DNA of 64,000 nucleotides from Naegleria gruberi (GCA_000004985.1 GG738911.1); one strand, 5' to 3'; positions 1 to 33,595 are shown, numbered from the stretch's first letter. Made by a program: numbers and translations. Notes: a model not told the origin generated them from the sequence alone.

Positions 1-333
1 CCAAACCCAAACCCAAACCCAAACCCAAACCCAAACCCAAACCCAAACCCAAACCCAAACCCAAACCCAAACCCAAACCCAAACCCAAACCCAAACCCAA
101 ACCCAAACCCAAACCCAAACCCAAACCCAAACCCAAACCCAAACCCAAACCCAAACCCAAACCCAAACCCAAACCCAAACCCAAACCCAAACCCAACCCA
201 AACCCAAACCCAAACCCAAACCCAAACCCAAACCCAAACCCAAACCCAAACCCAAACCCAAACCCAAACCCAAACCCAAACCCAAACCCAAACCCAAACC
301 CAAACCCAAACCCAAACCCAAACCCAAACCCAG
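1..333. repeat. Terminal telomeric tract of about 55 CCCAAA units (G-strand TTTGGG), with occasional CCCAA variants; C-rich strand on top, so this is a left chromosome end.
   Basis: Perfect hexamer periodicity is visible from position 1. The tract abuts unique AT-rich subtelomeric sequence at 334. Confidence 0.9.
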
Positions 334-810
334 AACTAAAAATAGAATTCTTCTAAACCCAACGTTCAAACCCTAGCCCAAAATTATAAACTTATTCAAA
401 TAGTATTAAATTTTATATCATTCGATTGGAAATGATGAGTATAACAATGTGTTATATTTAGTTTTTCAATTTATAAAATATTAACTTTGTAAATAATGTC
501 AGATTACAATTTCATAAATGAAACCATAGGAAGAATAATAATTTCAAAATCCTTTAATGAGATTATATAGTCTATATCATCGTTAACAACATTCATAATC
601 ATCAAAAGTTCATGTCGGTAGGTATAAAAGTATCAAGTGAAAGGGAAGTTGTGAGGTACAATAGGTCAACTATAACTTTTGAGTTTCTAATCAAAACATA
701 TTAAATCCTGACATGAAAATGTTCCATTTGATTAGTAAACAACGAATATCAAATTTATTTTCACTTTCATATTTAAAGATTTCTTCCACCATCATATGGT
801 CAACTATGAT

Positions 811-3800
811 NNNNNNNNNNNNNNNNNNNNNNNNNNNNNNNNNNNNNNNNNNNNNNNNNNNNNNNNNNNNNNNNNNNNNNNNNNNNNNNNNNNNNNNNNN
901 NNNNNNNNNNNNNNNNNNNNNNNNNNNNNNNNNNNNNNNNNNNNNNNNNNNNNNNNNNNNNNNNNNNNNNNNNNNNNNNNNNNNNNNNNNNNNNNNNNNN
1001 NNNNNNNNNNNNNNNNNNNNNNNNNNNNNNNNNNNNNNNNNNNNNNNNNNNNNNNNNNNNNNNNNNNNNNNNNNNNNNNNNNNNNNNNNNNNNNNNNNNN
1101 NNNNNNNNNNNNNNNNNNNNNNNNNNNNNNNNNNNNNNNNNNNNNNNNNNNNNNNNNNNNNNNNNNNNNNNNNNNNNNNNNNNNNNNNNNNNNNNNNNNN
1201 NNNNNNNNNNNNNNNNNNNNNNNNNNNNNNNNNNNNNNNNNNNNNNNNNNNNNNNNNNNNNNNNNNNNNNNNNNNNNNNNNNNNNNNNNNNNNNNNNNNN
1301 NNNNNNNNNNNNNNNNNNNNNNNNNNNNNNNNNNNNNNNNNNNNNNNNNNNNNNNNNNNNNNNNNNNNNNNNNNNNNNNNNNNNNNNNNNNNNNNNNNNN
1401 NNNNNNNNNNNNNNNNNNNNNNNNNNNNNNNNNNNNNNNNNNNNNNNNNNNNNNNNNNNNNNNNNNNNNNNNNNNNNNNNNNNNNNNNNNNNNNNNNNNN
1501 NNNNNNNNNNNNNNNNNNNNNNNNNNNNNNNNNNNNNNNNNNNNNNNNNNNNNNNNNNNNNNNNNNNNNNNNNNNNNNNNNNNNNNNNNNNNNNNNNNNN
1601 NNNNNNNNNNNNNNNNNNNNNNNNNNNNNNNNNNNNNNNNNNNNNNNNNNNNNNNNNNNNNNNNNNNNNNNNNNNNNNNNNNNNNNNNNNNNNNNNNNNN
1701 NNNNNNNNNNNNNNNNNNNNNNNNNNNNNNNNNNNNNNNNNNNNNNNNNNNNNNNNNNNNNNNNNNNNNNNNNNNNNNNNNNNNNNNNNNNNNNNNNNNN
1801 NNNNNNNNNNNNNNNNNNNNNNNNNNNNNNNNNNNNNNNNNNNNNNNNNNNNNNNNNNNNNNNNNNNNNNNNNNNNNNNNNNNNNNNNNNNNNNNNNNNN
1901 NNNNNNNNNNNNNNNNNNNNNNNNNNNNNNNNNNNNNNNNNNNNNNNNNNNNNNNNNNNNNNNNNNNNNNNNNNNNNNNNNNNNNNNNNNNNNNNNNNNN
2001 NNNNNNNNNNNNNNNNNNNNNNNNNNNNNNNNNNNNNNNNNNNNNNNNNNNNNNNNNNNNNNNNNNNNNNNNNNNNNNNNNNNNNNNNNNNNNNNNNNNN
2101 NNNNNNNNNNNNNNNNNNNNNNNNNNNNNNNNNNNNNNNNNNNNNNNNNNNNNNNNNNNNNNNNNNNNNNNNNNNNNNNNNNNNNNNNNNNNNNNNNNNN
2201 NNNNNNNNNNNNNNNNNNNNNNNNNNNNNNNNNNNNNNNNNNNNNNNNNNNNNNNNNNNNNNNNNNNNNNNNNNNNNNNNNNNNNNNNNNNNNNNNNNNN
2301 NNNNNNNNNNNNNNNNNNNNNNNNNNNNNNNNNNNNNNNNNNNNNNNNNNNNNNNNNNNNNNNNNNNNNNNNNNNNNNNNNNNNNNNNNNNNNNNNNNNN
2401 NNNNNNNNNNNNNNNNNNNNNNNNNNNNNNNNNNNNNNNNNNNNNNNNNNNNNNNNNNNNNNNNNNNNNNNNNNNNNNNNNNNNNNNNNNNNNNNNNNNN
2501 NNNNNNNNNNNNNNNNNNNNNNNNNNNNNNNNNNNNNNNNNNNNNNNNNNNNNNNNNNNNNNNNNNNNNNNNNNNNNNNNNNNNNNNNNNNNNNNNNNNN
2601 NNNNNNNNNNNNNNNNNNNNNNNNNNNNNNNNNNNNNNNNNNNNNNNNNNNNNNNNNNNNNNNNNNNNNNNNNNNNNNNNNNNNNNNNNNNNNNNNNNNN
2701 NNNNNNNNNNNNNNNNNNNNNNNNNNNNNNNNNNNNNNNNNNNNNNNNNNNNNNNNNNNNNNNNNNNNNNNNNNNNNNNNNNNNNNNNNNNNNNNNNNNN
2801 NNNNNNNNNNNNNNNNNNNNNNNNNNNNNNNNNNNNNNNNNNNNNNNNNNNNNNNNNNNNNNNNNNNNNNNNNNNNNNNNNNNNNNNNNNNNNNNNNNNN
2901 NNNNNNNNNNNNNNNNNNNNNNNNNNNNNNNNNNNNNNNNNNNNNNNNNNNNNNNNNNNNNNNNNNNNNNNNNNNNNNNNNNNNNNNNNNNNNNNNNNNN
3001 NNNNNNNNNNNNNNNNNNNNNNNNNNNNNNNNNNNNNNNNNNNNNNNNNNNNNNNNNNNNNNNNNNNNNNNNNNNNNNNNNNNNNNNNNNNNNNNNNNNN
3101 NNNNNNNNNNNNNNNNNNNNNNNNNNNNNNNNNNNNNNNNNNNNNNNNNNNNNNNNNNNNNNNNNNNNNNNNNNNNNNNNNNNNNNNNNNNNNNNNNNNN
3201 NNNNNNNNNNNNNNNNNNNNNNNNNNNNNNNNNNNNNNNNNNNNNNNNNNNNNNNNNNNNNNNNNNNNNNNNNNNNNNNNNNNNNNNNNNNNNNNNNNNN
3301 NNNNNNNNNNNNNNNNNNNNNNNNNNNNNNNNNNNNNNNNNNNNNNNNNNNNNNNNNNNNNNNNNNNNNNNNNNNNNNNNNNNNNNNNNNNNNNNNNNNN
3401 NNNNNNNNNNNNNNNNNNNNNNNNNNNNNNNNNNNNNNNNNNNNNNNNNNNNNNNNNNNNNNNNNNNNNNNNNNNNNNNNNNNNNNNNNNNNNNNNNNNN
3501 NNNNNNNNNNNNNNNNNNNNNNNNNNNNNNNNNNNNNNNNNNNNNNNNNNNNNNNNNNNNNNNNNNNNNNNNNNNNNNNNNNNNNNNNNNNNNNNNNNNN
3601 NNNNNNNNNNNNNNNNNNNNNNNNNNNNNNNNNNNNNNNNNNNNNNNNNNNNNNNNNNNNNNNNNNNNNNNNNNNNNNNNNNNNNNNNNNNNNNNNNNNN
3701 NNNNNNNNNNNNNNNNNNNNNNNNNNNNNNNNNNNNNNNNNNNNNNNNNNNNNNNNNNNNNNNNNNNNNNNNNNNNNNNNNNNNNNNNNNNNNNNNNNNN

Positions 3801-6800
3801 NNNNNNNNNNNNNNNNNNNNNNNNNNNNNNNNNNNNNNNNNNNNNNNNNNNNNNNNNNNNNNNNNNNNNNNNNNNNNNNNNNNNNNNNNNNNNNNNNNNN
3901 NNNNNNNNNNNNNNNNNNNNNNNNNNNNNNNNNNNNNNNNNNNNNNNNNNNNNNNNNNNNNNNNNNNNNNNNNNNNNNNNNNNNNNNNNNNNNNNNNNNN
4001 NNNNNNNNNNNNNNNNNNNNNNNNNNNNNNNNNNNNNNNNNNNNNNNNNNNNNNNNNNNNNNNNNNNNNNNNNNNNNNNNNNNNNNNNNNNNNNNNNNNN
4101 NNNNNNNNNNNNNNNNNNNNNNNNNNNNNNNNNNNNNNNNNNNNNNNNNNNNNNNNNNNNNNNNNNNNNNNNNNNNNNNNNNNNNNNNNNNNNNNNNNNN
4201 NNNNNNNNNNNNNNNNNNNNNNNNNNNNNNNNNNNNNNNNNNNNNNNNNNNNNNNNNNNNNNNNNNNNNNNNNNNNNNNNNNNNNNNNNNNNNNNNNNNN
4301 NNNNNNNNNNNNNNNNNNNNNNNNNNNNNNNNNNNNNNNNNNNNNNNNNNNNNNNNNNNNNNNNNNNNNNNNNNNNNNNNNNNNNNNNNNNNNNNNNNNN
4401 NNNNNNNNNNNNNNNNNNNNNNNNNNNNNNNNNNNNNNNNNNNNNNNNNNNNNNNNNNNNNNNNNNNNNNNNNNNNNNNNNNNNNNNNNNNNNNNNNNNN
4501 NNNNNNNNNNNNNNNNNNNNNNNNNNNNNNNNNNNNNNNNNNNNNNNNNNNNNNNNNNNNNNNNNNNNNNNNNNNNNNNNNNNNNNNNNNNNNNNNNNNN
4601 NNNNNNNNNNNNNNNNNNNNNNNNNNNNNNNNNNNNNNNNNNNNNNNNNNNNNNNNNNNNNNNNNNNNNNNNNNNNNNNNNNNNNNNNNNNNNNNNNNNN
4701 NNNNNNNNNNNNNNNNNNNNNNNNNNNNNNNNNNNNNNNNNNNNNNNNNNNNNNNNNNNNNNNNNNNNNNNNNNNNNNNNNNNNNNNNNNNNNNNNNNNN
4801 NNNNNNNNNNNNNNNNNNNNNNNNNNNNNNNNNNNNNNNNNNNNNNNNNNNNNNNNNNNNNNNNNNNNNNNNNNNNNNNNNNNNNNNNNNNNNNNNNNNN
4901 NNNNNNNNNNNNNNNNNNNNNNNNNNNNNNNNNNNNNNNNNNNNNNNNNNNNNNNNNNNNNNNNNNNNNNNNNNNNNNNNNNNNNNNNNNNNNNNNNNNN
5001 NNNNNNNNNNNNNNNNNNNNNNNNNNNNNNNNNNNNNNNNNNNNNNNNNNNNNNNNNNNNNNNNNNNNNNNNNNNNNNNNNNNNNNNNNNNNNNNNNNNN
5101 NNNNNNNNNNNNNNNNNNNNNNNNNNNNNNNNNNNNNNNNNNNNNNNNNNNNNNNNNNNNNNNNNNNNNNNNNNNNNNNNNNNNNNNNNNNNNNNNNNNN
5201 NNNNNNNNNNNNNNNNNNNNNNNNNNNNNNNNNNNNNNNNNNNNNNNNNNNNNNNNNNNNNNNNNNNNNNNNNNNNNNNNNNNNNNNNNNNNNNNNNNNN
5301 NNNNNNNNNNNNNNNNNNNNNNNNNNNNNNNNNNNNNNNNNNNNNNNNNNNNNNNNNNNNNNNNNNNNNNNNNNNNNNNNNNNNNNNNNNNNNNNNNNNN
5401 NNNNNNNNNNNNNNNNNNNNNNNNNNNNNNNNNNNNNNNNNNNNNNNNNNNNNNNNNNNNNNNNNNNNNNNNNNNNNNNNNNNNNNNNNNNNNNNNNNNN
5501 NNNNNNNNNNNNNNNNNNNNNNNNNNNNNNNNNNNNNNNNNNNNNNNNNNNNNNNNNNNNNNNNNNNNNNNNNNNNNNNNNNNNNNNNNNNNNNNNNNNN
5601 NNNNNNNNNNNNNNNNNNNNNNNNNNNNNNNNNNNNNNNNNNNNNNNNNNNNNNNNNNNNNNNNNNNNNNNNNNNNNNNNNNNNNNNNNNNNNNNNNNNN
5701 NNNNNNNNNNNNNNNNNNNNNNNNNNNNNNNNNNNNNNNNNNNNNNNNNNNNNNNNNNNNNNNNNNNNNNNNNNNNNNNNNNNNNNNNNNNNNNNNNNNN
5801 NNNNNNNNNNNNNNNNNNNNNNNNNNNNNNNNNNNNNNNNNNNNNNNNNNNNNNNNNNNNNNNNNNNNNNNNNNNNNNNNNNNNNNNNNNNNNNNNNNNN
5901 NNNNNNNNNNNNNNNNNNNNNNNNNNNNNNNNNNNNNNNNNNNNNNNNNNNNNNNNNNNNNNNNNNNNNNNNNNNNNNNNNNNNNNNNNNNNNNNNNNNN
6001 NNNNNNNNNNNNNNNNNNNNNNNNNNNNNNNNNNNNNNNNNNNNNNNNNNNNNNNNNNNNNNNNNNNNNNNNNNNNNNNNNNNNNNNNNNNNNNNNNNNN
6101 NNNNNNNNNNNNNNNNNNNNNNNNNNNNNNNNNNNNNNNNNNNNNNNNNNNNNNNNNNNNNNNNNNNNNNNNNNNNNNNNNNNNNNNNNNNNNNNNNNNN
6201 NNNNNNNNNNNNNNNNNNNNNNNNNNNNNNNNNNNNNNNNNNNNNNNNNNNNNNNNNNNNNNNNNNNNNNNNNNNNNNNNNNNNNNNNNNNNNNNNNNNN
6301 NNNNNNNNNNNNNNNNNNNNNNNNNNNNNNNNNNNNNNNNNNNNNNNNNNNNNNNNNNNNNNNNNNNNNNNNNNNNNNNNNNNNNNNNNNNNNNNNNNNN
6401 NNNNNNNNNNNNNNNNNNNNNNNNNNNNNNNNNNNNNNNNNNNNNNNNNNNNNNNNNNNNNNNNNNNNNNNNNNNNNNNNNNNNNNNNNNNNNNNNNNNN
6501 NNNNNNNNNNNNNNNNNNNNNNNNNNNNNNNNNNNNNNNNNNNNNNNNNNNNNNNNNNNNNNNNNNNNNNNNNNNNNNNNNNNNNNNNNNNNNNNNNNNN
6601 NNNNNNNNNNNNNNNNNNNNNNNNNNNNNNNNNNNNNNNNNNNNNNNNNNNNNNNNNNNNNNNNNNNNNNNNNNNNNNNNNNNNNNNNNNNNNNNNNNNN
6701 NNNNNNNNNNNNNNNNNNNNNNNNNNNNNNNNNNNNNNNNNNNNNNNNNNNNNNNNNNNNNNNNNNNNNNNNNNNNNNNNNNNNNNNNNNNNNNNNNNNN

Positions 6801-9800
6801 NNNNNNNNNNNNNNNNNNNNNNNNNNNNNNNNNNNNNNNNNNNNNNNNNNNNNNNNNNNNNNNNNNNNNNNNNNNNNNNNNNNNNNNNNNNNNNNNNNNN
6901 NNNNNNNNNNNNNNNNNNNNNNNNNNNNNNNNNNNNNNNNNNNNNNNNNNNNNNNNNNNNNNNNNNNNNNNNNNNNNNNNNNNNNNNNNNNNNNNNNNNN
7001 NNNNNNNNNNNNNNNNNNNNNNNNNNNNNNNNNNNNNNNNNNNNNNNNNNNNNNNNNNNNNNNNNNNNNNNNNNNNNNNNNNNNNNNNNNNNNNNNNNNN
7101 NNNNNNNNNNNNNNNNNNNNNNNNNNNNNNNNNNNNNNNNNNNNNNNNNNNNNNNNNNNNNNNNNNNNNNNNNNNNNNNNNNNNNNNNNNNNNNNNNNNN
7201 NNNNNNNNNNNNNNNNNNNNNNNNNNNNNNNNNNNNNNNNNNNNNNNNNNNNNNNNNNNNNNNNNNNNNNNNNNNNNNNNNNNNNNNNNNNNNNNNNNNN
7301 NNNNNNNNNNNNNNNNNNNNNNNNNNNNNNNNNNNNNNNNNNNNNNNNNNNNNNNNNNNNNNNNNNNNNNNNNNNNNNNNNNNNNNNNNNNNNNNNNNNN
7401 NNNNNNNNNNNNNNNNNNNNNNNNNNNNNNNNNNNNNNNNNNNNNNNNNNNNNNNNNNNNNNNNNNNNNNNNNNNNNNNNNNNNNNNNNNNNNNNNNNNN
7501 NNNNNNNNNNNNNNNNNNNNNNNNNNNNNNNNNNNNNNNNNNNNNNNNNNNNNNNNNNNNNNNNNNNNNNNNNNNNNNNNNNNNNNNNNNNNNNNNNNNN
7601 NNNNNNNNNNNNNNNNNNNNNNNNNNNNNNNNNNNNNNNNNNNNNNNNNNNNNNNNNNNNNNNNNNNNNNNNNNNNNNNNNNNNNNNNNNNNNNNNNNNN
7701 NNNNNNNNNNNNNNNNNNNNNNNNNNNNNNNNNNNNNNNNNNNNNNNNNNNNNNNNNNNNNNNNNNNNNNNNNNNNNNNNNNNNNNNNNNNNNNNNNNNN
7801 NNNNNNNNNNNNNNNNNNNNNNNNNNNNNNNNNNNNNNNNNNNNNNNNNNNNNNNNNNNNNNNNNNNNNNNNNNNNNNNNNNNNNNNNNNNNNNNNNNNN
7901 NNNNNNNNNNNNNNNNNNNNNNNNNNNNNNNNNNNNNNNNNNNNNNNNNNNNNNNNNNNNNNNNNNNNNNNNNNNNNNNNNNNNNNNNNNNNNNNNNNNN
8001 NNNNNNNNNNNNNNNNNNNNNNNNNNNNNNNNNNNNNNNNNNNNNNNNNNNNNNNNNNNNNNNNNNNNNNNNNNNNNNNNNNNNNNNNNNNNNNNNNNNN
8101 NNNNNNNNNNNNNNNNNNNNNNNNNNNNNNNNNNNNNNNNNNNNNNNNNNNNNNNNNNNNNNNNNNNNNNNNNNNNNNNNNNNNNNNNNNNNNNNNNNNN
8201 NNNNNNNNNNNNNNNNNNNNNNNNNNNNNNNNNNNNNNNNNNNNNNNNNNNNNNNNNNNNNNNNNNNNNNNNNNNNNNNNNNNNNNNNNNNNNNNNNNNN
8301 NNNNNNNNNNNNNNNNNNNNNNNNNNNNNNNNNNNNNNNNNNNNNNNNNNNNNNNNNNNNNNNNNNNNNNNNNNNNNNNNNNNNNNNNNNNNNNNNNNNN
8401 NNNNNNNNNNNNNNNNNNNNNNNNNNNNNNNNNNNNNNNNNNNNNNNNNNNNNNNNNNNNNNNNNNNNNNNNNNNNNNNNNNNNNNNNNNNNNNNNNNNN
8501 NNNNNNNNNNNNNNNNNNNNNNNNNNNNNNNNNNNNNNNNNNNNNNNNNNNNNNNNNNNNNNNNNNNNNNNNNNNNNNNNNNNNNNNNNNNNNNNNNNNN
8601 NNNNNNNNNNNNNNNNNNNNNNNNNNNNNNNNNNNNNNNNNNNNNNNNNNNNNNNNNNNNNNNNNNNNNNNNNNNNNNNNNNNNNNNNNNNNNNNNNNNN
8701 NNNNNNNNNNNNNNNNNNNNNNNNNNNNNNNNNNNNNNNNNNNNNNNNNNNNNNNNNNNNNNNNNNNNNNNNNNNNNNNNNNNNNNNNNNNNNNNNNNNN
8801 NNNNNNNNNNNNNNNNNNNNNNNNNNNNNNNNNNNNNNNNNNNNNNNNNNNNNNNNNNNNNNNNNNNNNNNNNNNNNNNNNNNNNNNNNNNNNNNNNNNN
8901 NNNNNNNNNNNNNNNNNNNNNNNNNNNNNNNNNNNNNNNNNNNNNNNNNNNNNNNNNNNNNNNNNNNNNNNNNNNNNNNNNNNNNNNNNNNNNNNNNNNN
9001 NNNNNNNNNNNNNNNNNNNNNNNNNNNNNNNNNNNNNNNNNNNNNNNNNNNNNNNNNNNNNNNNNNNNNNNNNNNNNNNNNNNNNNNNNNNNNNNNNNNN
9101 NNNNNNNNNNNNNNNNNNNNNNNNNNNNNNNNNNNNNNNNNNNNNNNNNNNNNNNNNNNNNNNNNNNNNNNNNNNNNNNNNNNNNNNNNNNNNNNNNNNN
9201 NNNNNNNNNNNNNNNNNNNNNNNNNNNNNNNNNNNNNNNNNNNNNNNNNNNNNNNNNNNNNNNNNNNNNNNNNNNNNNNNNNNNNNNNNNNNNNNNNNNN
9301 NNNNNNNNNNNNNNNNNNNNNNNNNNNNNNNNNNNNNNNNNNNNNNNNNNNNNNNNNNNNNNNNNNNNNNNNNNNNNNNNNNNNNNNNNNNNNNNNNNNN
9401 NNNNNNNNNNNNNNNNNNNNNNNNNNNNNNNNNNNNNNNNNNNNNNNNNNNNNNNNNNNNNNNNNNNNNNNNNNNNNNNNNNNNNNNNNNNNNNNNNNNN
9501 NNNNNNNNNNNNNNNNNNNNNNNNNNNNNNNNNNNNNNNNNNNNNNNNNNNNNNNNNNNNNNNNNNNNNNNNNNNNNNNNNNNNNNNNNNNNNNNNNNNN
9601 NNNNNNNNNNNNNNNNNNNNNNNNNNNNNNNNNNNNNNNNNNNNNNNNNNNNNNNNNNNNNNNNNNNNNNNNNNNNNNNNNNNNNNNNNNNNNNNNNNNN
9701 NNNNNNNNNNNNNNNNNNNNNNNNNNNNNNNNNNNNNNNNNNNNNNNNNNNNNNNNNNNNNNNNNNNNNNNNNNNNNNNNNNNNNNNNNNNNNNNNNNNN

Positions 9801-21800: not shown

Positions 21801-24800
21801 NNNNNNNNNNNNNNNNNNNNNNNNNNNNNNNNNNNNNNNNNNNNNNNNNNNNNNNNNNNNNNNNNNNNNNNNNNNNNNNNNNNNNNNNNNNNNNNNNNNN
21901 NNNNNNNNNNNNNNNNNNNNNNNNNNNNNNNNNNNNNNNNNNNNNNNNNNNNNNNNNNNNNNNNNNNNNNNNNNNNNNNNNNNNNNNNNNNNNNNNNNNN
22001 NNNNNNNNNNNNNNNNNNNNNNNNNNNNNNNNNNNNNNNNNNNNNNNNNNNNNNNNNNNNNNNNNNNNNNNNNNNNNNNNNNNNNNNNNNNNNNNNNNNN
22101 NNNNNNNNNNNNNNNNNNNNNNNNNNNNNNNNNNNNNNNNNNNNNNNNNNNNNNNNNNNNNNNNNNNNNNNNNNNNNNNNNNNNNNNNNNNNNNNNNNNN
22201 NNNNNNNNNNNNNNNNNNNNNNNNNNNNNNNNNNNNNNNNNNNNNNNNNNNNNNNNNNNNNNNNNNNNNNNNNNNNNNNNNNNNNNNNNNNNNNNNNNNN
22301 NNNNNNNNNNNNNNNNNNNNNNNNNNNNNNNNNNNNNNNNNNNNNNNNNNNNNNNNNNNNNNNNNNNNNNNNNNNNNNNNNNNNNNNNNNNNNNNNNNNN
22401 NNNNNNNNNNNNNNNNNNNNNNNNNNNNNNNNNNNNNNNNNNNNNNNNNNNNNNNNNNNNNNNNNNNNNNNNNNNNNNNNNNNNNNNNNNNNNNNNNNNN
22501 NNNNNNNNNNNNNNNNNNNNNNNNNNNNNNNNNNNNNNNNNNNNNNNNNNNNNNNNNNNNNNNNNNNNNNNNNNNNNNNNNNNNNNNNNNNNNNNNNNNN
22601 NNNNNNNNNNNNNNNNNNNNNNNNNNNNNNNNNNNNNNNNNNNNNNNNNNNNNNNNNNNNNNNNNNNNNNNNNNNNNNNNNNNNNNNNNNNNNNNNNNNN
22701 NNNNNNNNNNNNNNNNNNNNNNNNNNNNNNNNNNNNNNNNNNNNNNNNNNNNNNNNNNNNNNNNNNNNNNNNNNNNNNNNNNNNNNNNNNNNNNNNNNNN
22801 NNNNNNNNNNNNNNNNNNNNNNNNNNNNNNNNNNNNNNNNNNNNNNNNNNNNNNNNNNNNNNNNNNNNNNNNNNNNNNNNNNNNNNNNNNNNNNNNNNNN
22901 NNNNNNNNNNNNNNNNNNNNNNNNNNNNNNNNNNNNNNNNNNNNNNNNNNNNNNNNNNNNNNNNNNNNNNNNNNNNNNNNNNNNNNNNNNNNNNNNNNNN
23001 NNNNNNNNNNNNNNNNNNNNNNNNNNNNNNNNNNNNNNNNNNNNNNNNNNNNNNNNNNNNNNNNNNNNNNNNNNNNNNNNNNNNNNNNNNNNNNNNNNNN
23101 NNNNNNNNNNNNNNNNNNNNNNNNNNNNNNNNNNNNNNNNNNNNNNNNNNNNNNNNNNNNNNNNNNNNNNNNNNNNNNNNNNNNNNNNNNNNNNNNNNNN
23201 NNNNNNNNNNNNNNNNNNNNNNNNNNNNNNNNNNNNNNNNNNNNNNNNNNNNNNNNNNNNNNNNNNNNNNNNNNNNNNNNNNNNNNNNNNNNNNNNNNNN
23301 NNNNNNNNNNNNNNNNNNNNNNNNNNNNNNNNNNNNNNNNNNNNNNNNNNNNNNNNNNNNNNNNNNNNNNNNNNNNNNNNNNNNNNNNNNNNNNNNNNNN
23401 NNNNNNNNNNNNNNNNNNNNNNNNNNNNNNNNNNNNNNNNNNNNNNNNNNNNNNNNNNNNNNNNNNNNNNNNNNNNNNNNNNNNNNNNNNNNNNNNNNNN
23501 NNNNNNNNNNNNNNNNNNNNNNNNNNNNNNNNNNNNNNNNNNNNNNNNNNNNNNNNNNNNNNNNNNNNNNNNNNNNNNNNNNNNNNNNNNNNNNNNNNNN
23601 NNNNNNNNNNNNNNNNNNNNNNNNNNNNNNNNNNNNNNNNNNNNNNNNNNNNNNNNNNNNNNNNNNNNNNNNNNNNNNNNNNNNNNNNNNNNNNNNNNNN
23701 NNNNNNNNNNNNNNNNNNNNNNNNNNNNNNNNNNNNNNNNNNNNNNNNNNNNNNNNNNNNNNNNNNNNNNNNNNNNNNNNNNNNNNNNNNNNNNNNNNNN
23801 NNNNNNNNNNNNNNNNNNNNNNNNNNNNNNNNNNNNNNNNNNNNNNNNNNNNNNNNNNNNNNNNNNNNNNNNNNNNNNNNNNNNNNNNNNNNNNNNNNNN
23901 NNNNNNNNNNNNNNNNNNNNNNNNNNNNNNNNNNNNNNNNNNNNNNNNNNNNNNNNNNNNNNNNNNNNNNNNNNNNNNNNNNNNNNNNNNNNNNNNNNNN
24001 NNNNNNNNNNNNNNNNNNNNNNNNNNNNNNNNNNNNNNNNNNNNNNNNNNNNNNNNNNNNNNNNNNNNNNNNNNNNNNNNNNNNNNNNNNNNNNNNNNNN
24101 NNNNNNNNNNNNNNNNNNNNNNNNNNNNNNNNNNNNNNNNNNNNNNNNNNNNNNNNNNNNNNNNNNNNNNNNNNNNNNNNNNNNNNNNNNNNNNNNNNNN
24201 NNNNNNNNNNNNNNNNNNNNNNNNNNNNNNNNNNNNNNNNNNNNNNNNNNNNNNNNNNNNNNNNNNNNNNNNNNNNNNNNNNNNNNNNNNNNNNNNNNNN
24301 NNNNNNNNNNNNNNNNNNNNNNNNNNNNNNNNNNNNNNNNNNNNNNNNNNNNNNNNNNNNNNNNNNNNNNNNNNNNNNNNNNNNNNNNNNNNNNNNNNNN
24401 NNNNNNNNNNNNNNNNNNNNNNNNNNNNNNNNNNNNNNNNNNNNNNNNNNNNNNNNNNNNNNNNNNNNNNNNNNNNNNNNNNNNNNNNNNNNNNNNNNNN
24501 NNNNNNNNNNNNNNNNNNNNNNNNNNNNNNNNNNNNNNNNNNNNNNNNNNNNNNNNNNNNNNNNNNNNNNNNNNNNNNNNNNNNNNNNNNNNNNNNNNNN
24601 NNNNNNNNNNNNNNNNNNNNNNNNNNNNNNNNNNNNNNNNNNNNNNNNNNNNNNNNNNNNNNNNNNNNNNNNNNNNNNNNNNNNNNNNNNNNNNNNNNNN
24701 NNNNNNNNNNNNNNNNNNNNNNNNNNNNNNNNNNNNNNNNNNNNNNNNNNNNNNNNNNNNNNNNNNNNNNNNNNNNNNNNNNNNNNNNNNNNNNNNNNNN

Positions 24801-25061
24801 NNNNNNNNNNNNNNNNNNNNNNNNNNNNNNNNNNNNNNNNNNNNNNNNNNNNNNNNNNNNNNNNNNNNNNNNNNNNNNNNNNNNNNNNNNNNNNNNNNNN
24901 NNNNNNNNNNNNNNNNNNNNNNNNNNNNNNNNNNNNNNNNNNNNNNNNNNNNNNNNNNNNNNNNNNNNNNNNNNNNNNNNNNNNNNNNNNNNNNNNNNNN
25001 NNNNNNNNNNNNNNNNNNNNNNNNNNNNNNNNNNNNNNNNNNNNNNNNNNNNNNNNNNNNN
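811..25061. other. Assembly gap of 24,251 N.
   Basis: Continuous run of n. The ORF-track 'proteins' of >8000 aa spanning it are artefacts of translating N. Confidence 0.99.
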
Positions 25062-25150
25062 TACAAAATCAAAAACTACTACCAAGAACTTTCTTTTTTA
25101 ATTATTTAAAGGATAGTTTCAAATTTTTAAATTGTTCGGATTCTAGAGGA

Positions 25151-26093
25151 ATGCGTTGGTCTTCTGATATGTTGTGTTTTGCTCAAGATTTATTATCTTC
25201 TATGGGATATAATTTGTATGATGCAATTGGAAGAGGATCAATTGGTAAAGAGAAGTTCCAAACCAATTCCAGTGCTTGTAATTTAATTCTGCCCTGTTCC
25301 ACAACTCTTGACAATCATTTCCATATACCAAATTTCGGATATGGTGATACTTCAATTGACGAAAAGGAATTTGAATTATTCCAATCATCTATGGGTATTT
25401 CTAATACAACCCTTGGTGTTTTACAAGTTGATGCAATGGATTTATTTCCGTGTTTGAGTATTAATACACGTACTGGATTTTTAGTTGGTGCAATACAAGG
25501 ATTAATTCCAATTTCTCAATCAAACACTATCACAGAGGAAATAATTAATAATAACTTTCTAGCTGAAAAGGTAATTCAAACATTATTTTTGGATGTTGAG
25601 GGGAAAATTAGAATACCTGGAAATTTTCAATTTTGTAAATCTGAAACTAGTGAATTGATTGAAAAAGTAGTTGAAAAATTCAAGGAAGTCTATACTGACA
25701 ACATTTGTTGCACTGTTTCTGATGCAGGATCTGCTAATTGGACATATTTTACAAATTTAAAAAGTGAGAAAACTTTTCATCACTTCTGTTACTCTCACTT
25801 GGCTAAAAATATTAGAAATGCTATTGATTCAAAACCCAAACTGTTTCCAATTGAACACAGAAAGATAACAGAACCTAGTATTTTGACTAAGGAAACCTCA
25901 AACACTTATTCTACACACAAAGGTGTATGTCATTTATTTAGAATTCAATTTAAAAAGACAAGTAATATCACCATCCACTTATCAATTGTGATAGAAGATA
26001 AGAAAATTGATATATTCTGGAATAATCGTTCAAATACAACAGTACACAACTACAGTACATTATCTTCCTTTTATTCAGTTAATGATAAAACGT
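25151..26093 (+). CDS. hAT-like DDE transposase fragment. The 3' end is truncated by a gap and the 5' end is uncertain (first ATG after the gap).
   Basis: Open frame of about 314 codons. It contains ...CCTVSDAGSANW...(16 aa)...FCYSHLAKNIRNAID, which resembles the hAT blocks TDNASNM and CxAHxLNL. It lies in a subtelomeric contig. Confidence 0.35.
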
Positions 26094-26143
26094 NNNNNNN
26101 NNNNNNNNNNNNNNNNNNNNNNNNNNNNNNNNNNNNNNNNNNN
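26094..26143. other. Scaffold gap of 50 N.
   Basis: Run of n. Confidence 0.99.
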
Positions 26144-26769
26144 ATCATATCAATAATAATCATCATGACCATCCAAATATCACTCTTTCCAATAAAATTC
26201 AACCAAGTAATAGTTGAAGAATATTCATTCGAAAAATCCAGCACCGAATTAAATTCCTTCTCACCCTGTGCAGTCTCCATATATAATGCTCTATGAACAA
26301 GTACTCCAATCATGATCTTTTCCATCAAACTCGACAAGACGAAAAGTCCAAACAAGAGATTGACCCAGAGTGCTCTCTTATCAAATCTCCAAAATAATTT
26401 AACAAAGGCCACAACTATAAACAAGGCTACTCCTTGATACATTATATGATGATACCTTCCTTCTTCTCCCATTTGATGAAGTAAACTCCAAACCTTCTCC
26501 GATGACATCCATCCCCATCCAAATCTCGTTCCCAACGTTAAATGTATCCACGATGATTCATATATTTGTACATAATGATAGAAAGCATATGGAAGGGAGA
26601 GAATTAAACCAAGAAACCAATAAAACAAGGAATTTGATCTTAAATTGGTTAAAATTGATTTCTTATTGTTGTATTTTACATATCCACTCGATGATGATGA
26701 TGATGTAGCCGAGAATAATTTATTGGATGATGCAAAAGTTGAAGTGGAAGGCAAGGTTGTCGGTAACAT
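26144..26769 (-). CDS. Small multi-pass membrane protein, paralogue copy A; its C-terminus is lost in the gap. Possibly EXPERA/TMEM97-like.
   Basis: ATG at 26769 (MLPTTLPSTSTF...). At least 3 hydrophobic helices. About 97% identical to the complete 225-aa copy at 59183-59860. Start of FYWFLGLILSLPYAFYHYVQI weakly resembles the sigma-2/TMEM97 N-terminus. Confidence 0.55.
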
Positions 26770-26983
26770 TTGTAATTCGAATATTTTTTAAATCAAAAAA
26801 AATAATAATATAAAATATTATTTTTTATTCCGTGATGAAAATCAAATTAGGAAAGGGGAATAATTTCCATCATTTCAAAGAAAAAAAAAAGCGCCAACTA
26901 AGCAAAATAATTATTGGCTTTGAAAAAGTCCGGCTAAAAGTGATACAAGAATACTCATAGATTAGTTGAATCCAATCATCATC

Positions 26984-27435
26984 ATGATCAGTTTATTTAT
27001 TGCTGCCTTGTTCGGATCAAATAGCAGAAATTTAGATAAAACTTCCAATCAACAATTATTTGGCTATGAACAACAACAACAACAACCAGTAAATCATCAT
27101 CATCCTCCTCATCAACAACAACAGCCTCCACAACAACCACAACAACAATATTATGTAAATAATCCGCAGCCTCTACCACCAAATTATCAACCTTCAATTC
27201 CGCCACCCAATCATAGAAATTCAATCATTAGTAATAATAATAATATTAATAATAATATTAATTATCATCTACAACAACAACCAGTAAATCAACAGCCTCC
27301 TCCTTCTTCTACCTCTAATTCCTTCAAAGTTAATAATAATAATTATCCTAATGTAATAACAACAACATATCCGCCACAACAACAACAAGCAAATACTACT
27401 GGTTATCCACAATCACAAATTGTAGATCACAATCA
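26984..27435 (+). CDS. Secreted Q/N/P-rich protein, paralogue copy A; truncated at a contig end.
   Basis: ATG at 26984 gives MISLFIAALFGS, which looks like a signal peptide (the track start at 26966 is TTG). Poly-Q, poly-N and PPxY-like low complexity. Near-identical to 60063-60499 of copy B. The frame then runs into a gap and telomere repeat; the QTQT/PKPK translation there is spurious. Confidence 0.55.
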
Positions 27436-27485
27436 NNNNNNNNNNNNNNNNNNNNNNNNNNNNNNNNNNNNNNNNNNNNNNNNNN
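27436..27485. other. Scaffold gap of 50 N.
   Basis: Run of n. Confidence 0.99.
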
Positions 27486-27786
27486 CCCAAACCCAAACCC
27501 AAACCCAAACCCAAACCCAAACCCAAACCCAAACCCAAACCCAAACCCAAACCCAAACCCAAACCCAAACCCAAACCCAAACCCAAACCCAACCCAAACC
27601 CAAACCCAAACCCAAACCAAAAACCCAAACCCAAACCCAAACCCAAACCCAACCCAAACCCAAACCCAAACCCAAACCCAAACCCAAACCCAAACCCAAA
27701 CCCAAACCCAAACCCAAACCCAAACCCAAACCCAAACCCAAACCCAAACCCAAACCCAAACCCAAACCCAAACCCAAACCCAACCC
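27486..27786. repeat. Second (CCCAAA)n telomeric tract, internal to the scaffold, in the same orientation as the terminal one; minor CCCAA and CCAAAAA variants.
   Basis: About 50 hexamer units begin immediately after a gap and are followed by unique AT-rich sequence (27787-28485). Confidence 0.9.
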
Positions 27787-28485
27787 ACGACTAAGGTCAG
27801 ACCCAACATTTTGACTTTTATTCATCTTAATTCATTATCTCAATAAATACTCATTATAAATCAATATATTATATATCAATATACTCCAAATTGAATATAT
27901 AATCATATTATAACATAATATTATATCATTATAATGACTTATATAAGTTAATTTCAAATAATAGATTAGACAATTAGAATATCAATGAAACCATTTCAAA
28001 ACCATTTCAAATCAATATATCACATTATAAATCATGTTAGCAACAATGTATATCAATTTCAGATACTTTGGTATCATTTCAGGATATTTGCTATTCAACT
28101 TGTCAACTGACCAATACTAACATTGAAGATAGAAATCTTTACCACTTCAATTCACTTCCAATACATATATACATGATAATTAAATACATTAATATCATTT
28201 TGACATTCATCCATATTATACATGGTACATGGCTGTTCCACTTGATACCTACAGGGATGTGACAATGACATCCACTATACAGATCATTATGAAATTGTTA
28301 CAGTACCTTACTTATGGTGAATAAACACTACTGTATCAGTTTCATGACAATTTGAAATCATCCAACATGTCAGGAGTGTAATCATGAGAACTATGAATGT
28401 CAGTATAATGAAATCATATTAATTTTGAAATCTTTCAATTATATCATCGTAGATAGATCAATTAACCATGGTATATCAATAATTG

Positions 28486-31400
28486 NNNNNNNNNNNNNNN
28501 NNNNNNNNNNNNNNNNNNNNNNNNNNNNNNNNNNNNNNNNNNNNNNNNNNNNNNNNNNNNNNNNNNNNNNNNNNNNNNNNNNNNNNNNNNNNNNNNNNNN
28601 NNNNNNNNNNNNNNNNNNNNNNNNNNNNNNNNNNNNNNNNNNNNNNNNNNNNNNNNNNNNNNNNNNNNNNNNNNNNNNNNNNNNNNNNNNNNNNNNNNNN
28701 NNNNNNNNNNNNNNNNNNNNNNNNNNNNNNNNNNNNNNNNNNNNNNNNNNNNNNNNNNNNNNNNNNNNNNNNNNNNNNNNNNNNNNNNNNNNNNNNNNNN
28801 NNNNNNNNNNNNNNNNNNNNNNNNNNNNNNNNNNNNNNNNNNNNNNNNNNNNNNNNNNNNNNNNNNNNNNNNNNNNNNNNNNNNNNNNNNNNNNNNNNNN
28901 NNNNNNNNNNNNNNNNNNNNNNNNNNNNNNNNNNNNNNNNNNNNNNNNNNNNNNNNNNNNNNNNNNNNNNNNNNNNNNNNNNNNNNNNNNNNNNNNNNNN
29001 NNNNNNNNNNNNNNNNNNNNNNNNNNNNNNNNNNNNNNNNNNNNNNNNNNNNNNNNNNNNNNNNNNNNNNNNNNNNNNNNNNNNNNNNNNNNNNNNNNNN
29101 NNNNNNNNNNNNNNNNNNNNNNNNNNNNNNNNNNNNNNNNNNNNNNNNNNNNNNNNNNNNNNNNNNNNNNNNNNNNNNNNNNNNNNNNNNNNNNNNNNNN
29201 NNNNNNNNNNNNNNNNNNNNNNNNNNNNNNNNNNNNNNNNNNNNNNNNNNNNNNNNNNNNNNNNNNNNNNNNNNNNNNNNNNNNNNNNNNNNNNNNNNNN
29301 NNNNNNNNNNNNNNNNNNNNNNNNNNNNNNNNNNNNNNNNNNNNNNNNNNNNNNNNNNNNNNNNNNNNNNNNNNNNNNNNNNNNNNNNNNNNNNNNNNNN
29401 NNNNNNNNNNNNNNNNNNNNNNNNNNNNNNNNNNNNNNNNNNNNNNNNNNNNNNNNNNNNNNNNNNNNNNNNNNNNNNNNNNNNNNNNNNNNNNNNNNNN
29501 NNNNNNNNNNNNNNNNNNNNNNNNNNNNNNNNNNNNNNNNNNNNNNNNNNNNNNNNNNNNNNNNNNNNNNNNNNNNNNNNNNNNNNNNNNNNNNNNNNNN
29601 NNNNNNNNNNNNNNNNNNNNNNNNNNNNNNNNNNNNNNNNNNNNNNNNNNNNNNNNNNNNNNNNNNNNNNNNNNNNNNNNNNNNNNNNNNNNNNNNNNNN
29701 NNNNNNNNNNNNNNNNNNNNNNNNNNNNNNNNNNNNNNNNNNNNNNNNNNNNNNNNNNNNNNNNNNNNNNNNNNNNNNNNNNNNNNNNNNNNNNNNNNNN
29801 NNNNNNNNNNNNNNNNNNNNNNNNNNNNNNNNNNNNNNNNNNNNNNNNNNNNNNNNNNNNNNNNNNNNNNNNNNNNNNNNNNNNNNNNNNNNNNNNNNNN
29901 NNNNNNNNNNNNNNNNNNNNNNNNNNNNNNNNNNNNNNNNNNNNNNNNNNNNNNNNNNNNNNNNNNNNNNNNNNNNNNNNNNNNNNNNNNNNNNNNNNNN
30001 NNNNNNNNNNNNNNNNNNNNNNNNNNNNNNNNNNNNNNNNNNNNNNNNNNNNNNNNNNNNNNNNNNNNNNNNNNNNNNNNNNNNNNNNNNNNNNNNNNNN
30101 NNNNNNNNNNNNNNNNNNNNNNNNNNNNNNNNNNNNNNNNNNNNNNNNNNNNNNNNNNNNNNNNNNNNNNNNNNNNNNNNNNNNNNNNNNNNNNNNNNNN
30201 NNNNNNNNNNNNNNNNNNNNNNNNNNNNNNNNNNNNNNNNNNNNNNNNNNNNNNNNNNNNNNNNNNNNNNNNNNNNNNNNNNNNNNNNNNNNNNNNNNNN
30301 NNNNNNNNNNNNNNNNNNNNNNNNNNNNNNNNNNNNNNNNNNNNNNNNNNNNNNNNNNNNNNNNNNNNNNNNNNNNNNNNNNNNNNNNNNNNNNNNNNNN
30401 NNNNNNNNNNNNNNNNNNNNNNNNNNNNNNNNNNNNNNNNNNNNNNNNNNNNNNNNNNNNNNNNNNNNNNNNNNNNNNNNNNNNNNNNNNNNNNNNNNNN
30501 NNNNNNNNNNNNNNNNNNNNNNNNNNNNNNNNNNNNNNNNNNNNNNNNNNNNNNNNNNNNNNNNNNNNNNNNNNNNNNNNNNNNNNNNNNNNNNNNNNNN
30601 NNNNNNNNNNNNNNNNNNNNNNNNNNNNNNNNNNNNNNNNNNNNNNNNNNNNNNNNNNNNNNNNNNNNNNNNNNNNNNNNNNNNNNNNNNNNNNNNNNNN
30701 NNNNNNNNNNNNNNNNNNNNNNNNNNNNNNNNNNNNNNNNNNNNNNNNNNNNNNNNNNNNNNNNNNNNNNNNNNNNNNNNNNNNNNNNNNNNNNNNNNNN
30801 NNNNNNNNNNNNNNNNNNNNNNNNNNNNNNNNNNNNNNNNNNNNNNNNNNNNNNNNNNNNNNNNNNNNNNNNNNNNNNNNNNNNNNNNNNNNNNNNNNNN
30901 NNNNNNNNNNNNNNNNNNNNNNNNNNNNNNNNNNNNNNNNNNNNNNNNNNNNNNNNNNNNNNNNNNNNNNNNNNNNNNNNNNNNNNNNNNNNNNNNNNNN
31001 NNNNNNNNNNNNNNNNNNNNNNNNNNNNNNNNNNNNNNNNNNNNNNNNNNNNNNNNNNNNNNNNNNNNNNNNNNNNNNNNNNNNNNNNNNNNNNNNNNNN
31101 NNNNNNNNNNNNNNNNNNNNNNNNNNNNNNNNNNNNNNNNNNNNNNNNNNNNNNNNNNNNNNNNNNNNNNNNNNNNNNNNNNNNNNNNNNNNNNNNNNNN
31201 NNNNNNNNNNNNNNNNNNNNNNNNNNNNNNNNNNNNNNNNNNNNNNNNNNNNNNNNNNNNNNNNNNNNNNNNNNNNNNNNNNNNNNNNNNNNNNNNNNNN
31301 NNNNNNNNNNNNNNNNNNNNNNNNNNNNNNNNNNNNNNNNNNNNNNNNNNNNNNNNNNNNNNNNNNNNNNNNNNNNNNNNNNNNNNNNNNNNNNNNNNNN

Positions 31401-31839
31401 NNNNNNNNNNNNNNNNNNNNNNNNNNNNNNNNNNNNNNNNNNNNNNNNNNNNNNNNNNNNNNNNNNNNNNNNNNNNNNNNNNNNNNNNNNNNNNNNNNNN
31501 NNNNNNNNNNNNNNNNNNNNNNNNNNNNNNNNNNNNNNNNNNNNNNNNNNNNNNNNNNNNNNNNNNNNNNNNNNNNNNNNNNNNNNNNNNNNNNNNNNNN
31601 NNNNNNNNNNNNNNNNNNNNNNNNNNNNNNNNNNNNNNNNNNNNNNNNNNNNNNNNNNNNNNNNNNNNNNNNNNNNNNNNNNNNNNNNNNNNNNNNNNNN
31701 NNNNNNNNNNNNNNNNNNNNNNNNNNNNNNNNNNNNNNNNNNNNNNNNNNNNNNNNNNNNNNNNNNNNNNNNNNNNNNNNNNNNNNNNNNNNNNNNNNNN
31801 NNNNNNNNNNNNNNNNNNNNNNNNNNNNNNNNNNNNNNN
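28486..31839. other. Assembly gap of 3,354 N.
   Basis: Run of n. Confidence 0.99.
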
Positions 31840-32149
31840 GCAAATCAACCTGATTCAATCTACAAAGGTTGGTAGTTGCACCACTTCGTGGCGAAACTAC
31901 CCATCCACGATGAATCAACATGTGATTCACTTCCATTCAACTCAATTTGACCGTTATATTCAATAAATCAATGAAATGTTCCTTTATTAGCAATACCTAT
32001 TCAATCTAATGAGTAGATTCACGTCCCAAACATTTGACTTCTCAAAGTCCATAATTCAAAAGTTAGTACTGACCTGACCTTTAAATATCTATCAATGCAA
32101 GAAATGAAACCATCAAATTTACATCATTTATAGATGATAAGAAATATAA

Positions 32150-33319
32150 TCAATGATATAAATCTTCACTAAGTAATATATTAAATAACCCAAATAAATC
32201 AACTCTGAATCCTAACCAAACCCAAACCCCCCCACCCAAACCCAACCCAAACCCAACCCCAAACCCTGAAACATAATCATCACATTGCATATCAGATAAG
32301 GTTGAATATTGCATCAAATTCTTAGTTCTGGTTGAGGCAATTTCAAAGGTTTTAACTTGGGCAACCTTTTCAGAGGATGTTTCATTGTGAATGAGTTTAA
32401 GCAAATCATCCATTCCCAAATTATTGACCTTCTCTTCTCCCAATTCTTTAATTTTTTTAGCAACAAGATTGTCCATATCTTCATCTTCCACACAACCATT
32501 AATCACCAAATTTGGAATCTTATTAGCATCTGTTAAGAGTAAACATTTACCATCAGTTTTAGTTGTCAAATAATCCATAAACAAGGTCAATTGTTGATCA
32601 TCCTTAGCTCTTTCACACAAAATTCCATAAAAGACAACATTCTTCTCCTGGAGAGCAGATCCCAATTTGATCCAATCAATGACATTTCCTTGTTGATCCT
32701 TACATCCTTCTGGATAGCTATCAGATGATGTTTTCATTCCATGTGGAGGAGCATCAGCAACCCAAACAACAATCTTCTTTCCCTTCTTATTAAATGGCAT
32801 TTCATTAATGACATAGAGAGCTGATGCCAAAGCTTCTGGATGATCACCTCCACCTTGAGCTGACATTGTATTGATATAACCCTTTGCCTTATTTAAATCC
32901 TTTGTAAATGGGAATTCCTTAACTGCATAATCATCAGTGTGATCTCTATAACTGACAGCTGAAAATCTCAAATCAGATTGAAACTTTTCATGAAGTGTTG
33001 AGATGATAGTAGTGACAGTTCGTTTGGCAACTTCAATTTCACCAGACATTGATCCAGTACAATCCATTACAATAACCAAATCAACAATATTTTCACTGTG
33101 GTCAACCAATTCTTGATCATAACCTTCTTCTTCCAAATGTTTAGCACGAATCCAAGCACCAGGTCTTTGAGAATTGCTGTTGTGTTTGTGTTCATCATCA
33201 TGACGATCCACAATTGACAAATCATCCATTCTTCTTCCTAATTTTTCTTCGACTGGCAACATTTCGTCAAAACAATCATCATCACAATTGTTTAAATCTG
33301 AAGGAATGTAGAGATCCAT
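32150..33319 (-). CDS. von Willebrand factor A (vWA) domain protein. The C-terminal ~40 codons are read from the telomere-like tract, so the true 3' end is uncertain.
   Basis: ATG at 33319. VIVMDCTGSMSGEI is a MIDAS-type D-x-[ST]-G-S-M motif, and VVWVADAPPHG also fits a vWA fold. The tail GFGVGFGLGLGGG is a translation of the G-rich telomeric strand. Confidence 0.6.
   Translation of the reverse strand: MDLYIPSDLNNCDDDCFDEMLPVEEKLGRRMDDLSIVDRHDDEHKHNSNSQRPGAWIRAKHLEEEGYDQELVDHSENIVDLVIVMDCTGSMSGEIEVAKRTVTTIISTLHEKFQSDLRFSAVSYRDHTDDYAVKEFPFTKDLNKAKGYINTMSAQGGGDHPEALASALYVINEMPFNKKGKKIVVWVADAPPHGMKTSSDSYPEGCKDQQGNVIDWIKLGSALQEKNVVFYGILCERAKDDQQLTLFMDYLTTKTDGKCLLLTDANKIPNLVINGCVEDEDMDNLVAKKIKELGEEKVNNLGMDDLLKLIHNETSSEKVAQVKTFEIASTRTKNLMQYSTLSDMQCDDYVSGFGVGFGLGLGGGVWVWLGFRVDLFGLFNILLSEDLYH
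32211..32266. repeat. Degenerate interstitial telomere-like tract.
   Basis: Sequence cctaaccaaacccaaacccccccacccaaacccaacccaaacccaaccccaaaccc. It lies 370 bp right of the gap edge and inside the 3' end of the vWA ORF. Confidence 0.7.
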
Positions 33320-33595
33320 TATTTTTGATAGTGTAGGTTATTAAAGTTTCTGTTTTTTTTGATTTTGTTTGGATATGAACTTTTTGTTGGTTTGATTTAA
33401 ACCTTGTGTGAAGAATAGCAAGTTCATTGTTCAAAAGTTTAGTTGGCAATGACGAAGAAGTTCCAATGCACAGGGAGATACAGTTTGCAATTCTAGAATA
33501 AACTCAATATTCAATGAATTAGTACACTTTCGAATAGAATAGAATAGAATAAACGAAACCTGAGAATAAAATCGAATAAAAGTAAACTGATTTAT

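Follow-up and report, generated by a model that had tools for sequence, protein, structure and literature searches.

An interstitial telomere tract at a truncated vWA gene, and two telomere-bearing contigs, at one end of a Naegleria gruberi scaffold

We analyzed a 64,000-base stretch (hereafter "the window") from Naegleria gruberi NEG-M, where it forms the left end of a 261-kb scaffold (GG738911.1). It contains three tracts of the telomere-type repeat (CCCAAA)n, numbered 1 to 3 from the left, the third of which abuts a 3′-truncated copy of a vWA-domain gene. The NEG-M assembly is a Sanger-era draft genome, and the window consists of five contigs, c1 to c5, separated by runs of N. Real sequence accounts for only 4,134 of the positions 1–31,839, distributed over the four small contigs c1 to c4, and 87% of this interval is N. 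Three open reading frames (ORFs) of the window are exact matches of the NEG-M proteins XP_002670795.1, XP_002670797.1 and XP_002670799.1, all encoded on the 261,328-bp record. All matches in the initial protein search were Naegleria proteins, and the standard genetic code fits the long ORFs of the window. A ciliate macronuclear chromosome, considered in view of the TTTGGG/TTGGGG telomeres of Paramecium, was rejected on these two grounds.

Repeat tracts were identified with Tandem Repeats Finder and regular-expression scans, together with a 15-mer scan that allowed up to two mismatches; expectations were derived from shuffled sequences. The 15-mer scan returned 108 matches (0.1 expected), all on the + strand and all within the three tracts, and no tract with TTTGGG on top was detected by regular expression anywhere in the window. 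The C-strand is on top in all three tracts. An earlier note on this DNA, made from the sequence alone, had described three telomere tracts in the same orientation, each beside different unique sequence. Tandem Repeats Finder and the regular expressions bear out the tracts, with one-base corrections to their coordinates, and the flanks indeed lack significant similarity to each other. TTTGGG is the candidate telomere repeat of N. gruberi in a survey of genome assemblies, the main text of which takes the position and orientation of candidate repeats into account and describes internal stretches as also present in most genomes with terminal arrays (Fulneckova et al., 2013; PMC3622300). Tracts 1 and 2 consist of that repeat, in the orientation expected at a scaffold or contig end, whereas individual internal tracts or junctions of N. 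gruberi are not analyzed in the main text of that survey.

Tract 3 is located within the N-free contig c5, with 374 bp of contiguous sequence on its distal side and 31.7 kb on its proximal side, and is thus an interstitial telomeric sequence. Tandem Repeats Finder placed it at 32214/6–32266, with ~8 copies and 75% matches. Because only C and A are present, its irregularity reflects run-length variation and not random substitution. On the minus strand the truncated vWA gene continues directly into this tract, as GGGTTTGGGGTTGGG... The annotated protein XP_002670847.1 (vWFA-domain protein) is exactly the naive ORF 33319..32150 (−), which runs through tract 3; TTTGGG repeats on the minus strand are stop-free in all frames. 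The last ~37 residues of this protein (GFGVGFGLGLGGGVWVWLGFRVDLFGLFNILLSEDLYH) are translated telomere repeat and spacer, not vWA sequence.

Comparison with full-length family members locates the end of the gene at the tract. The NEG-M paralogue XP_002680825.1 (395 amino acids, on a 939-kb scaffold) shares 94% identity with the window copy up to ...SDMQCDDYVS and none thereafter. After DDYVS the window copy reads GFGVGFGLGLGGGVWVW..., which is translated telomere repeat, and the paralogue reads AQNVMTRNDD... For comparison at the DNA level we used four contigs (L001–L004) from an environmental relative, one of which, L001, carries a full-length gene. The homology detected by blastn spans window positions 33504–32266 and ends at the first base of tract 3. 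With a slash marking the breakpoint, the window reads ...GATTATGTTTCAG/GGTTTGGGGTTGGG where L001 reads ...GATTATGTTTCAG/CTCAGAATG (in short, ...GTTTCAG/GGTTTGGGG versus ...GTTTCAG/CTCAGAATG). Read along the minus strand, the gene passes into GGGTTTGGGG..., and the G-strand runs 5′ to 3′ toward the scaffold end at window position 1. The C-terminal ~43–45 codons are kept in 11 family members from N. gruberi, N. fowleri, N. lovaniensis and metagenomes, and the window copy alone is without them; the lost 3′ part was not found elsewhere in the window. As the lost C-terminus is conserved across the family, the truncated window copy represents the derived state.

The vWA block is a 1.26-kb partial gene copy, the proximal edge of which lies near 33505–33525, beside a (GAATA)n microsatellite. 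Its identity to the full-length locus of L001 (1723–2975) is mosaic, with 98.7% over the 860 bp beside the tract and ~90% over the 5′ 380 bp, a pattern that suggests later gene conversion ending where the homology stops. L001 shares only this locus with the window. At least three NEG-M scaffolds, 261 kb, 939 kb and 18 kb long, contain the block, and at the left end of c5 it is the only demonstrably multi-copy sequence near the join. The third copy, XP_002668746.1 (P0018), is encoded on a scaffold of 18,311 bp; it matches XP_002680825.1 exactly over 196 residues, at which point it ends. This could reflect an allelic mini-scaffold or a further truncated gene copy. Scans of JGI metagenome contigs for the tract-3 junction and, separately, for the conserved region around the vWA breakpoint gave 0 matches each.

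Table 1. Contigs, gaps and features of the window (coordinates counted from the first base of the window)
Feature	Position	Strand	Size or description
Window		 	64,000 bases, of which 27,705 are N; left end of 261-kb N. gruberi NEG-M scaffold
Contig c1	1–810		810 bp
Tract 1, (CCCAAA)n	1–332	+	55.5 copies, 99% matches (Tandem Repeats Finder); 53/56 units canonical
Tract 1 flank	333–810		Unique, AT-rich, GC content 25.5%; AATGAAACCAT at 517
Gap c1/c2	811–25061		24,251 N
Contig c2	25062–26093		1,032 bp
c2 frame, XP_002670793.1 (annotated predicted protein)	25064–26092	+	343 amino acids, open at both ends
Gap c2/c3	26094–26143		50 N
Contig c3	26144–27435		1,292 bp
Gap c3/c4	27436–27485		50 N
Contig c4	27486–28485		1,000 bp
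Tract 2, (CCCAAA)n	27486–27787	+	50.7 copies, 96% matches; 46/52 units canonical
Tract 2 flank	27788–28485		Unique, AT-rich, GC content 26%; AATGAAACCAT at 27984
Gap c4/c5	28486–31839		3,354 N
Contig c5	31840–64000		Single N-free contig, ~32 kb
Distal flank of tract 3	31840–32213		374 bp, unique, non-coding; AATGAAACCAT at 32103; contiguous with tract in c5
Tract 3	32214–32266	+	53 bp, C and A only; 3/9 units canonical
vWA copy, 3′-truncated, with ~200 bp upstream	32267–33525	−	Start codon 33319; homology to codon ~352
c3 partner copy	59235–60499	+	In c5; XP_002670853.1 (−) and 563-amino-acid ORF 59916–61607

Because truncated paralogy, exact junction, derived state and G-strand orientation combine at this site, we read tract 3 as a genuine interstitial telomeric sequence bearing the signature of a break that was healed by de novo telomere addition. 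The vWA gene copy would have been broken after codon ~352, and telomerase, the putative agent, would have extended the broken 3′ end with TTTGGG-type repeats toward the chromosome end, so that the site of tract 3 may once have been a functional chromosome end. New DNA would later have been joined distal to a short tract, by recombination or end joining, leaving the 53-bp irregular relic. The shortness of tract 3 in comparison with the ~300-bp terminal tracts fits a telomere that had eroded before burial, and just as well a short patch made by telomerase and then captured in end joining. If the healing is accepted, the arm has thus undergone a break followed by healing at least once.

Tract 1 is the scaffold's terminal telomere array, the window start being taken as the scaffold end. 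Tracts 1 (332 bp) and 2 (302 bp) each open a contig of about the size of a read (810 and 1,000 bp). Tract 2 starts at the first base after a 50-N gap and has no non-telomeric sequence on its left, and no ORF of at least 75 amino acids was found in its flank (27788–28485). Tract 1, like tract 2, is followed by non-coding DNA. In length and purity it is near tract 1 and far from tract 3 (53 bp, with 3 of 9 units canonical). The positions of variant units differ between tracts 1 and 2, which are thus independent ends. Scattered AAACCC and CCCAA fragments continue for ~20–50 bp past both clean arrays (333–385 and 27779–27806), and look like the usual degenerate basal zone of a telomere. Since tract 2 is like the array at the scaffold end and unlike the proven internal relic, it is rather probably a real terminus on some molecules, and a position as an internal array is doubtful. 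Candidates for such molecules are the other homologue, a subclone in which a terminal deletion has healed, and the end of a different chromosome. Tract 2 may represent the same break-and-heal process in a polymorphic state; an allele-specific terminus, if that is what it is, would mean ongoing terminal truncation in a long-cultured clonal amoeba.

Between tracts 1 and 2 lie contigs c2 and c3. The earlier note had recognized a transposase fragment in this interval, and the assignment stands for the relatives of the c2 frame, though the frame itself falls below the Pfam cutoff. Against PF21787, the TNP-like RNase H N-terminal domain, the c2 frame scores 13.9 bits (E = 0.067; cutoff 24.6). With HMMER we found 28 relatives, from Willaertia magna and metagenomes, the long ones of which (950–1,390 amino acids) exceed the cutoff over the aligned region (25.0, 34.8 and 51.8 bits). 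The c2 frame aligns at approximately amino acids 256–510 of a 1080-amino-acid relative, and it is by transitive homology that it is predicted to be a mid-gene fragment of a P-element/THAP9-like (TNP-like) transposase. No further match was found among NEG-M proteins. In some of the long relatives (P0037, P0040 and its cluster, from metagenomes) a C-terminal RNase_T exonuclease domain accompanies the TNP-like RNase H domain, which is an unusual architecture; one of these also has a SAP domain, and a shorter relative occurs in Willaertia magna.

Contig c3 matches positions 59235–60499 along its whole length and in the same orientation (blastn, 94.9% over 1,304 columns), in agreement with the earlier note, which had seen one copy of a subtelomeric duplication here. 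It spans parts of two divergently transcribed genes. Global alignment revealed ~14 substitutions (~1.1%), with 1 mismatch in the first 560 bp, and indels most of which have lengths that are multiples of 3 or fall in A-runs; within the coding parts they are in frame. Both ends of c3 are contig ends, and any boundary of the duplication is hidden. Contig L002 of the environmental relative has a mosaic of variants common to c3 and to the 59235–60499 copy, as expected under either duplication or haplotypes. The alignments are compatible with a duplication that is very recent or has undergone gene conversion, and also with c3 as a second haplotype. A multi-copy subtelomeric family was considered for c3 and rejected for the annotated proteins, given a single NEG-M match, on this scaffold.

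Both 50-N gaps interrupt reading frames. The c2 frame enters the gap at 26094–26143 with at least 460 amino acids still to come, and the + strand gene of c3 ends at codon ~156 of 563, where it runs into the gap at 27436–27485 with ~1.1 kb missing by comparison with the copy at 59916–61607. Because each of them cuts a frame that needs more than 1 kb, these gaps are placeholders and not literal distances, and the order c2-c3-c4 is therefore the scaffolder's estimate, not sequence evidence. The advice of the earlier note to distrust gene order in the first 32 kb is thus justified, the more so as 87% of it is N. Its account of the gaps was right for the 50-N and 3.3-kb gaps and left out the 24,251-N gap at 811–25061. 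Its proposal that the scaffolder had chained telomere contigs through shared subtelomeric repeats is not demonstrated by the sequence: the tract flanks are unique, and the c3 gene has a single annotated NEG-M copy. Its alternative, interstitial arrays that mark healing, applies to tract 3, which is in an uninterrupted contig and abuts the vWA truncation, and is doubtful for tract 2, which is without a left flank.

The explanation that we favor as a whole, and consider moderately probable, is that tracts 1 and 2 are two separately cloned termini, which would have been hung ~32 kb and ~4.4 kb outside c5, and that tract 3 is the interstitial relic of a healed break. Several points weigh against it. 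The 860 bp beside tract 3 are 98.7% identical to a full-length paralogue, yet the tract is very irregular, and this tension is relieved only by assuming recent gene conversion or repeats that were irregular from the start; the full-length comparator DNA is that of the environmental relative, the NEG-M paralogue being compared at the protein level only. The evidence for the terminal status of tract 2 is contig anatomy only. Contigs c2 and c3 are placed to the left of tract 2, and c1 is placed 25 kb further out, all in consistent orientation. One molecule with an internal 300-bp array would give the same scaffold picture, and contig breaks at repeat edges can equally explain why tract 2 opens a contig.

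These points lead to the possibility that the scaffold is right for one molecule, in which case tract 2 would be a 300-bp interstitial array and tract 3 an older one, that is, nested former ends buried under new DNA (the distal part of c5 with the c4 flank, followed by c3, c2, the 24-kb interval and c1). The three tracts share one orientation and the pieces are placed consistently, tract 3 proves that a telomere tract has been buried on this arm, and the breaks of c3, which is nearly identical to 59235–60499, could be repeat-boundary breaks. However, not one non-telomeric base is joined to the left of tract 2. Single Sanger reads would span 302 bp as they did the 53-bp tract. In length and purity tract 2 equals the terminal tract and not the internal relic, whereas a decapped telomere that was fused or extended is expected to be short. 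Moreover, the junction of c3 with tract 2 cannot have arisen by healing, as CCCAAA would then follow the broken gene on its 3′ side in the + strand, and the 50-N gaps are not literal. We regard a single molecule as improbable. The main proposal of the earlier note, a special case of a terminal tract 2, has c1 and/or c4 (and c2 and c3) coming from other chromosomes, drawn in by mate pairs in repeated sequence. Wrong mate links could be attracted by the vWA block with which c5 begins on the left; at least three NEG-M records contain this block, and 860 bp of it match a full-length copy at 98.7% identity. In addition, c3 nearly duplicates an internal segment, and the 24-kb hole in this Sanger draft points to DNA that is repeated or was left unplaced. 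Set against this, the three tract flanks are unique within the window, the c3 gene has its single annotated NEG-M copy on this scaffold, the c2 transposase fragment has no further NEG-M protein match, and L001, with the full-length vWA locus, has nothing else in common with the window. Foreign origin of these contigs is thus a tentative alternative.

Two further alternatives concern the individual elements. Short interstitial telomeric sequences in mammals are thought to arise when telomerase patches a break that is then end-joined, and tract 3 might likewise never have been a chromosome end, but a telomerase-made patch at a double-strand break in the vWA copy that was end-joined at once. Its length of 53 bp, its location at a junction of unrelated sequences, and a G-strand with G/T run-length variants only and no A or C, which fits irregular synthesis as well as decay, are compatible with such a patch. 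Its orientation and the loss of everything distal fit terminal healing, as does its location within ~4–32 kb of telomere-bearing contigs, and we consider the patch unlikely; the key step, telomerase acting on a break in the vWA gene, is common to both scenarios. For c3, a second haplotype of 59235–60499, unmerged because of indels and then misplaced, would account for a substitution divergence of only ~1.1% and for coding indels that are all in frame. Naegleria has been described as a heterozygous diploid (PMC9928731), and L002 has variants of both copies. However, the mates of an allelic contig would have put c3 at 59 kb and not 33 kb away, its neighbor c2 has no counterpart at 58–59 kb, and the variant pattern of L002 is equally expected for two paralogues that each accumulate changes. 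A misplaced haplotype is accordingly a doubtful explanation of c3.

Chained or alternative telomere-bearing contigs occur in mate-pair scaffolds of draft assemblies, and the left part of the window resembles such artefacts in several respects. Read-sized contigs open with telomere repeat, they are separated by N runs that include two identical 50-N placeholders, and they are in one orientation outside a long unique contig. It differs in that the placements may be true for different homologues, and in that one of the three tracts is demonstrably no artefact.

For tract 3 the closest parallel is telomere healing at breaks in subtelomeric genes of Plasmodium falciparum (PMC5550746). There, as here, the cut falls at an arbitrary base within a gene, the telomere repeats begin directly at it with no more than 1 nt of overlap, the G-strand points toward the chromosome end, and everything distal is lost. 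Healing in P. falciparum competes with homologous recombination that copies other chromosome ends (PMC5550746), which is a plausible source of the new distal DNA in Naegleria. In contrast to the P. falciparum cases, the healed end here is no longer terminal: it is a 53-bp irregular relic with unrelated DNA beyond it, the event is read from a fossil junction, and the involvement of telomerase is putative. A second parallel is with internal tracts. Subtelomeric interstitial telomeric sequences occur at the boundaries of duplicated blocks, as at yeast X/Y′ junctions and in human subtelomeres. Like those, tract 3 is short, degenerate and oriented as a terminal array, marks the exact boundary of a duplicated segment, here the 1.26-kb vWA copy, and lies within a few tens of kb of a chromosome end. 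One difference is that we found no evidence here, where no genome-wide survey could be made, of a distal block shared with other chromosome ends.

Each element of the locus has a known counterpart: the repeat, subtelomeric healing, degenerate internal tracts and chained telomere contigs. On telomere healing or interstitial tracts in Naegleria, our literature search found nothing beyond the 2013 repeat survey; within the searchable literature, the tract-3 junction seems to give the first indication at sequence level of telomere healing and later burial in a heterolobosean. Its value is mainly corrective, for two gene models and for scaffold order, and it also offers a concrete testable locus. 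XP_002670847.1 should be corrected to a 3′-truncated vWA copy with a tail of translated telomere repeat, and XP_002670793.1 to a mid-gene transposase fragment. Neither gene order nor distances should be taken from the first 32 kb of this scaffold. The interval 32100–32400 is a target of suitable size for the polymerase chain reaction, with which the tract-3 junction could be followed across N. gruberi strains.

When comparing the flanks of the three tracts we noted one exact 11-mer, AATGAAACCAT, at 517–527, 27984–27994 and 32103–32113. It is on the + strand at each site and occurs only in the unique flanks of the tracts: 185 bp inward of tract 1, 197 bp inward of tract 2, and 101 bp beyond tract 3 on its distal side. 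The shuffle expectation for this 11-mer is 0.16, and the chance of any 11-mer being common to the three flanks is ~0.0016. No similarity extends around it at its three sites, and no structure stands out in the three flanks. A shared subtelomeric element among the flanks was rejected, as local alignments were no better than those of shuffles and only one 11-mer is common. AATGAAACCAT may be a subtelomeric motif. A more far-reaching view would have all three tracts on one molecule, with AATGAAACCAT in a subtelomeric element ~100–200 bp from each tract. Arms would then grow by the joining of DNA onto telomeres, even full-length ones, leaving a ladder of former ends (the 53-bp relic, the 300-bp array and the current terminus). 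We consider this unlikely.

The remainder of c5 is ordinary gene-dense DNA that encodes cyclase, ankyrin, NHL/EGF, GPS-RGS and TPR proteins. The only Rfam matches in the window are four transfer RNAs, every one of them in c5. Two pairs of same-strand ORFs in this contig overlap by 13 bp, one on the minus strand (33596–35590 and 35578–37386) and one on the + strand (51973–54309 and 54297–56927). Each pair is probably one large gene with a short intron or a frameshift. The pair at 51973–56927, if it is one gene, would join NHL/EGF domains to GPS and RGS domains.

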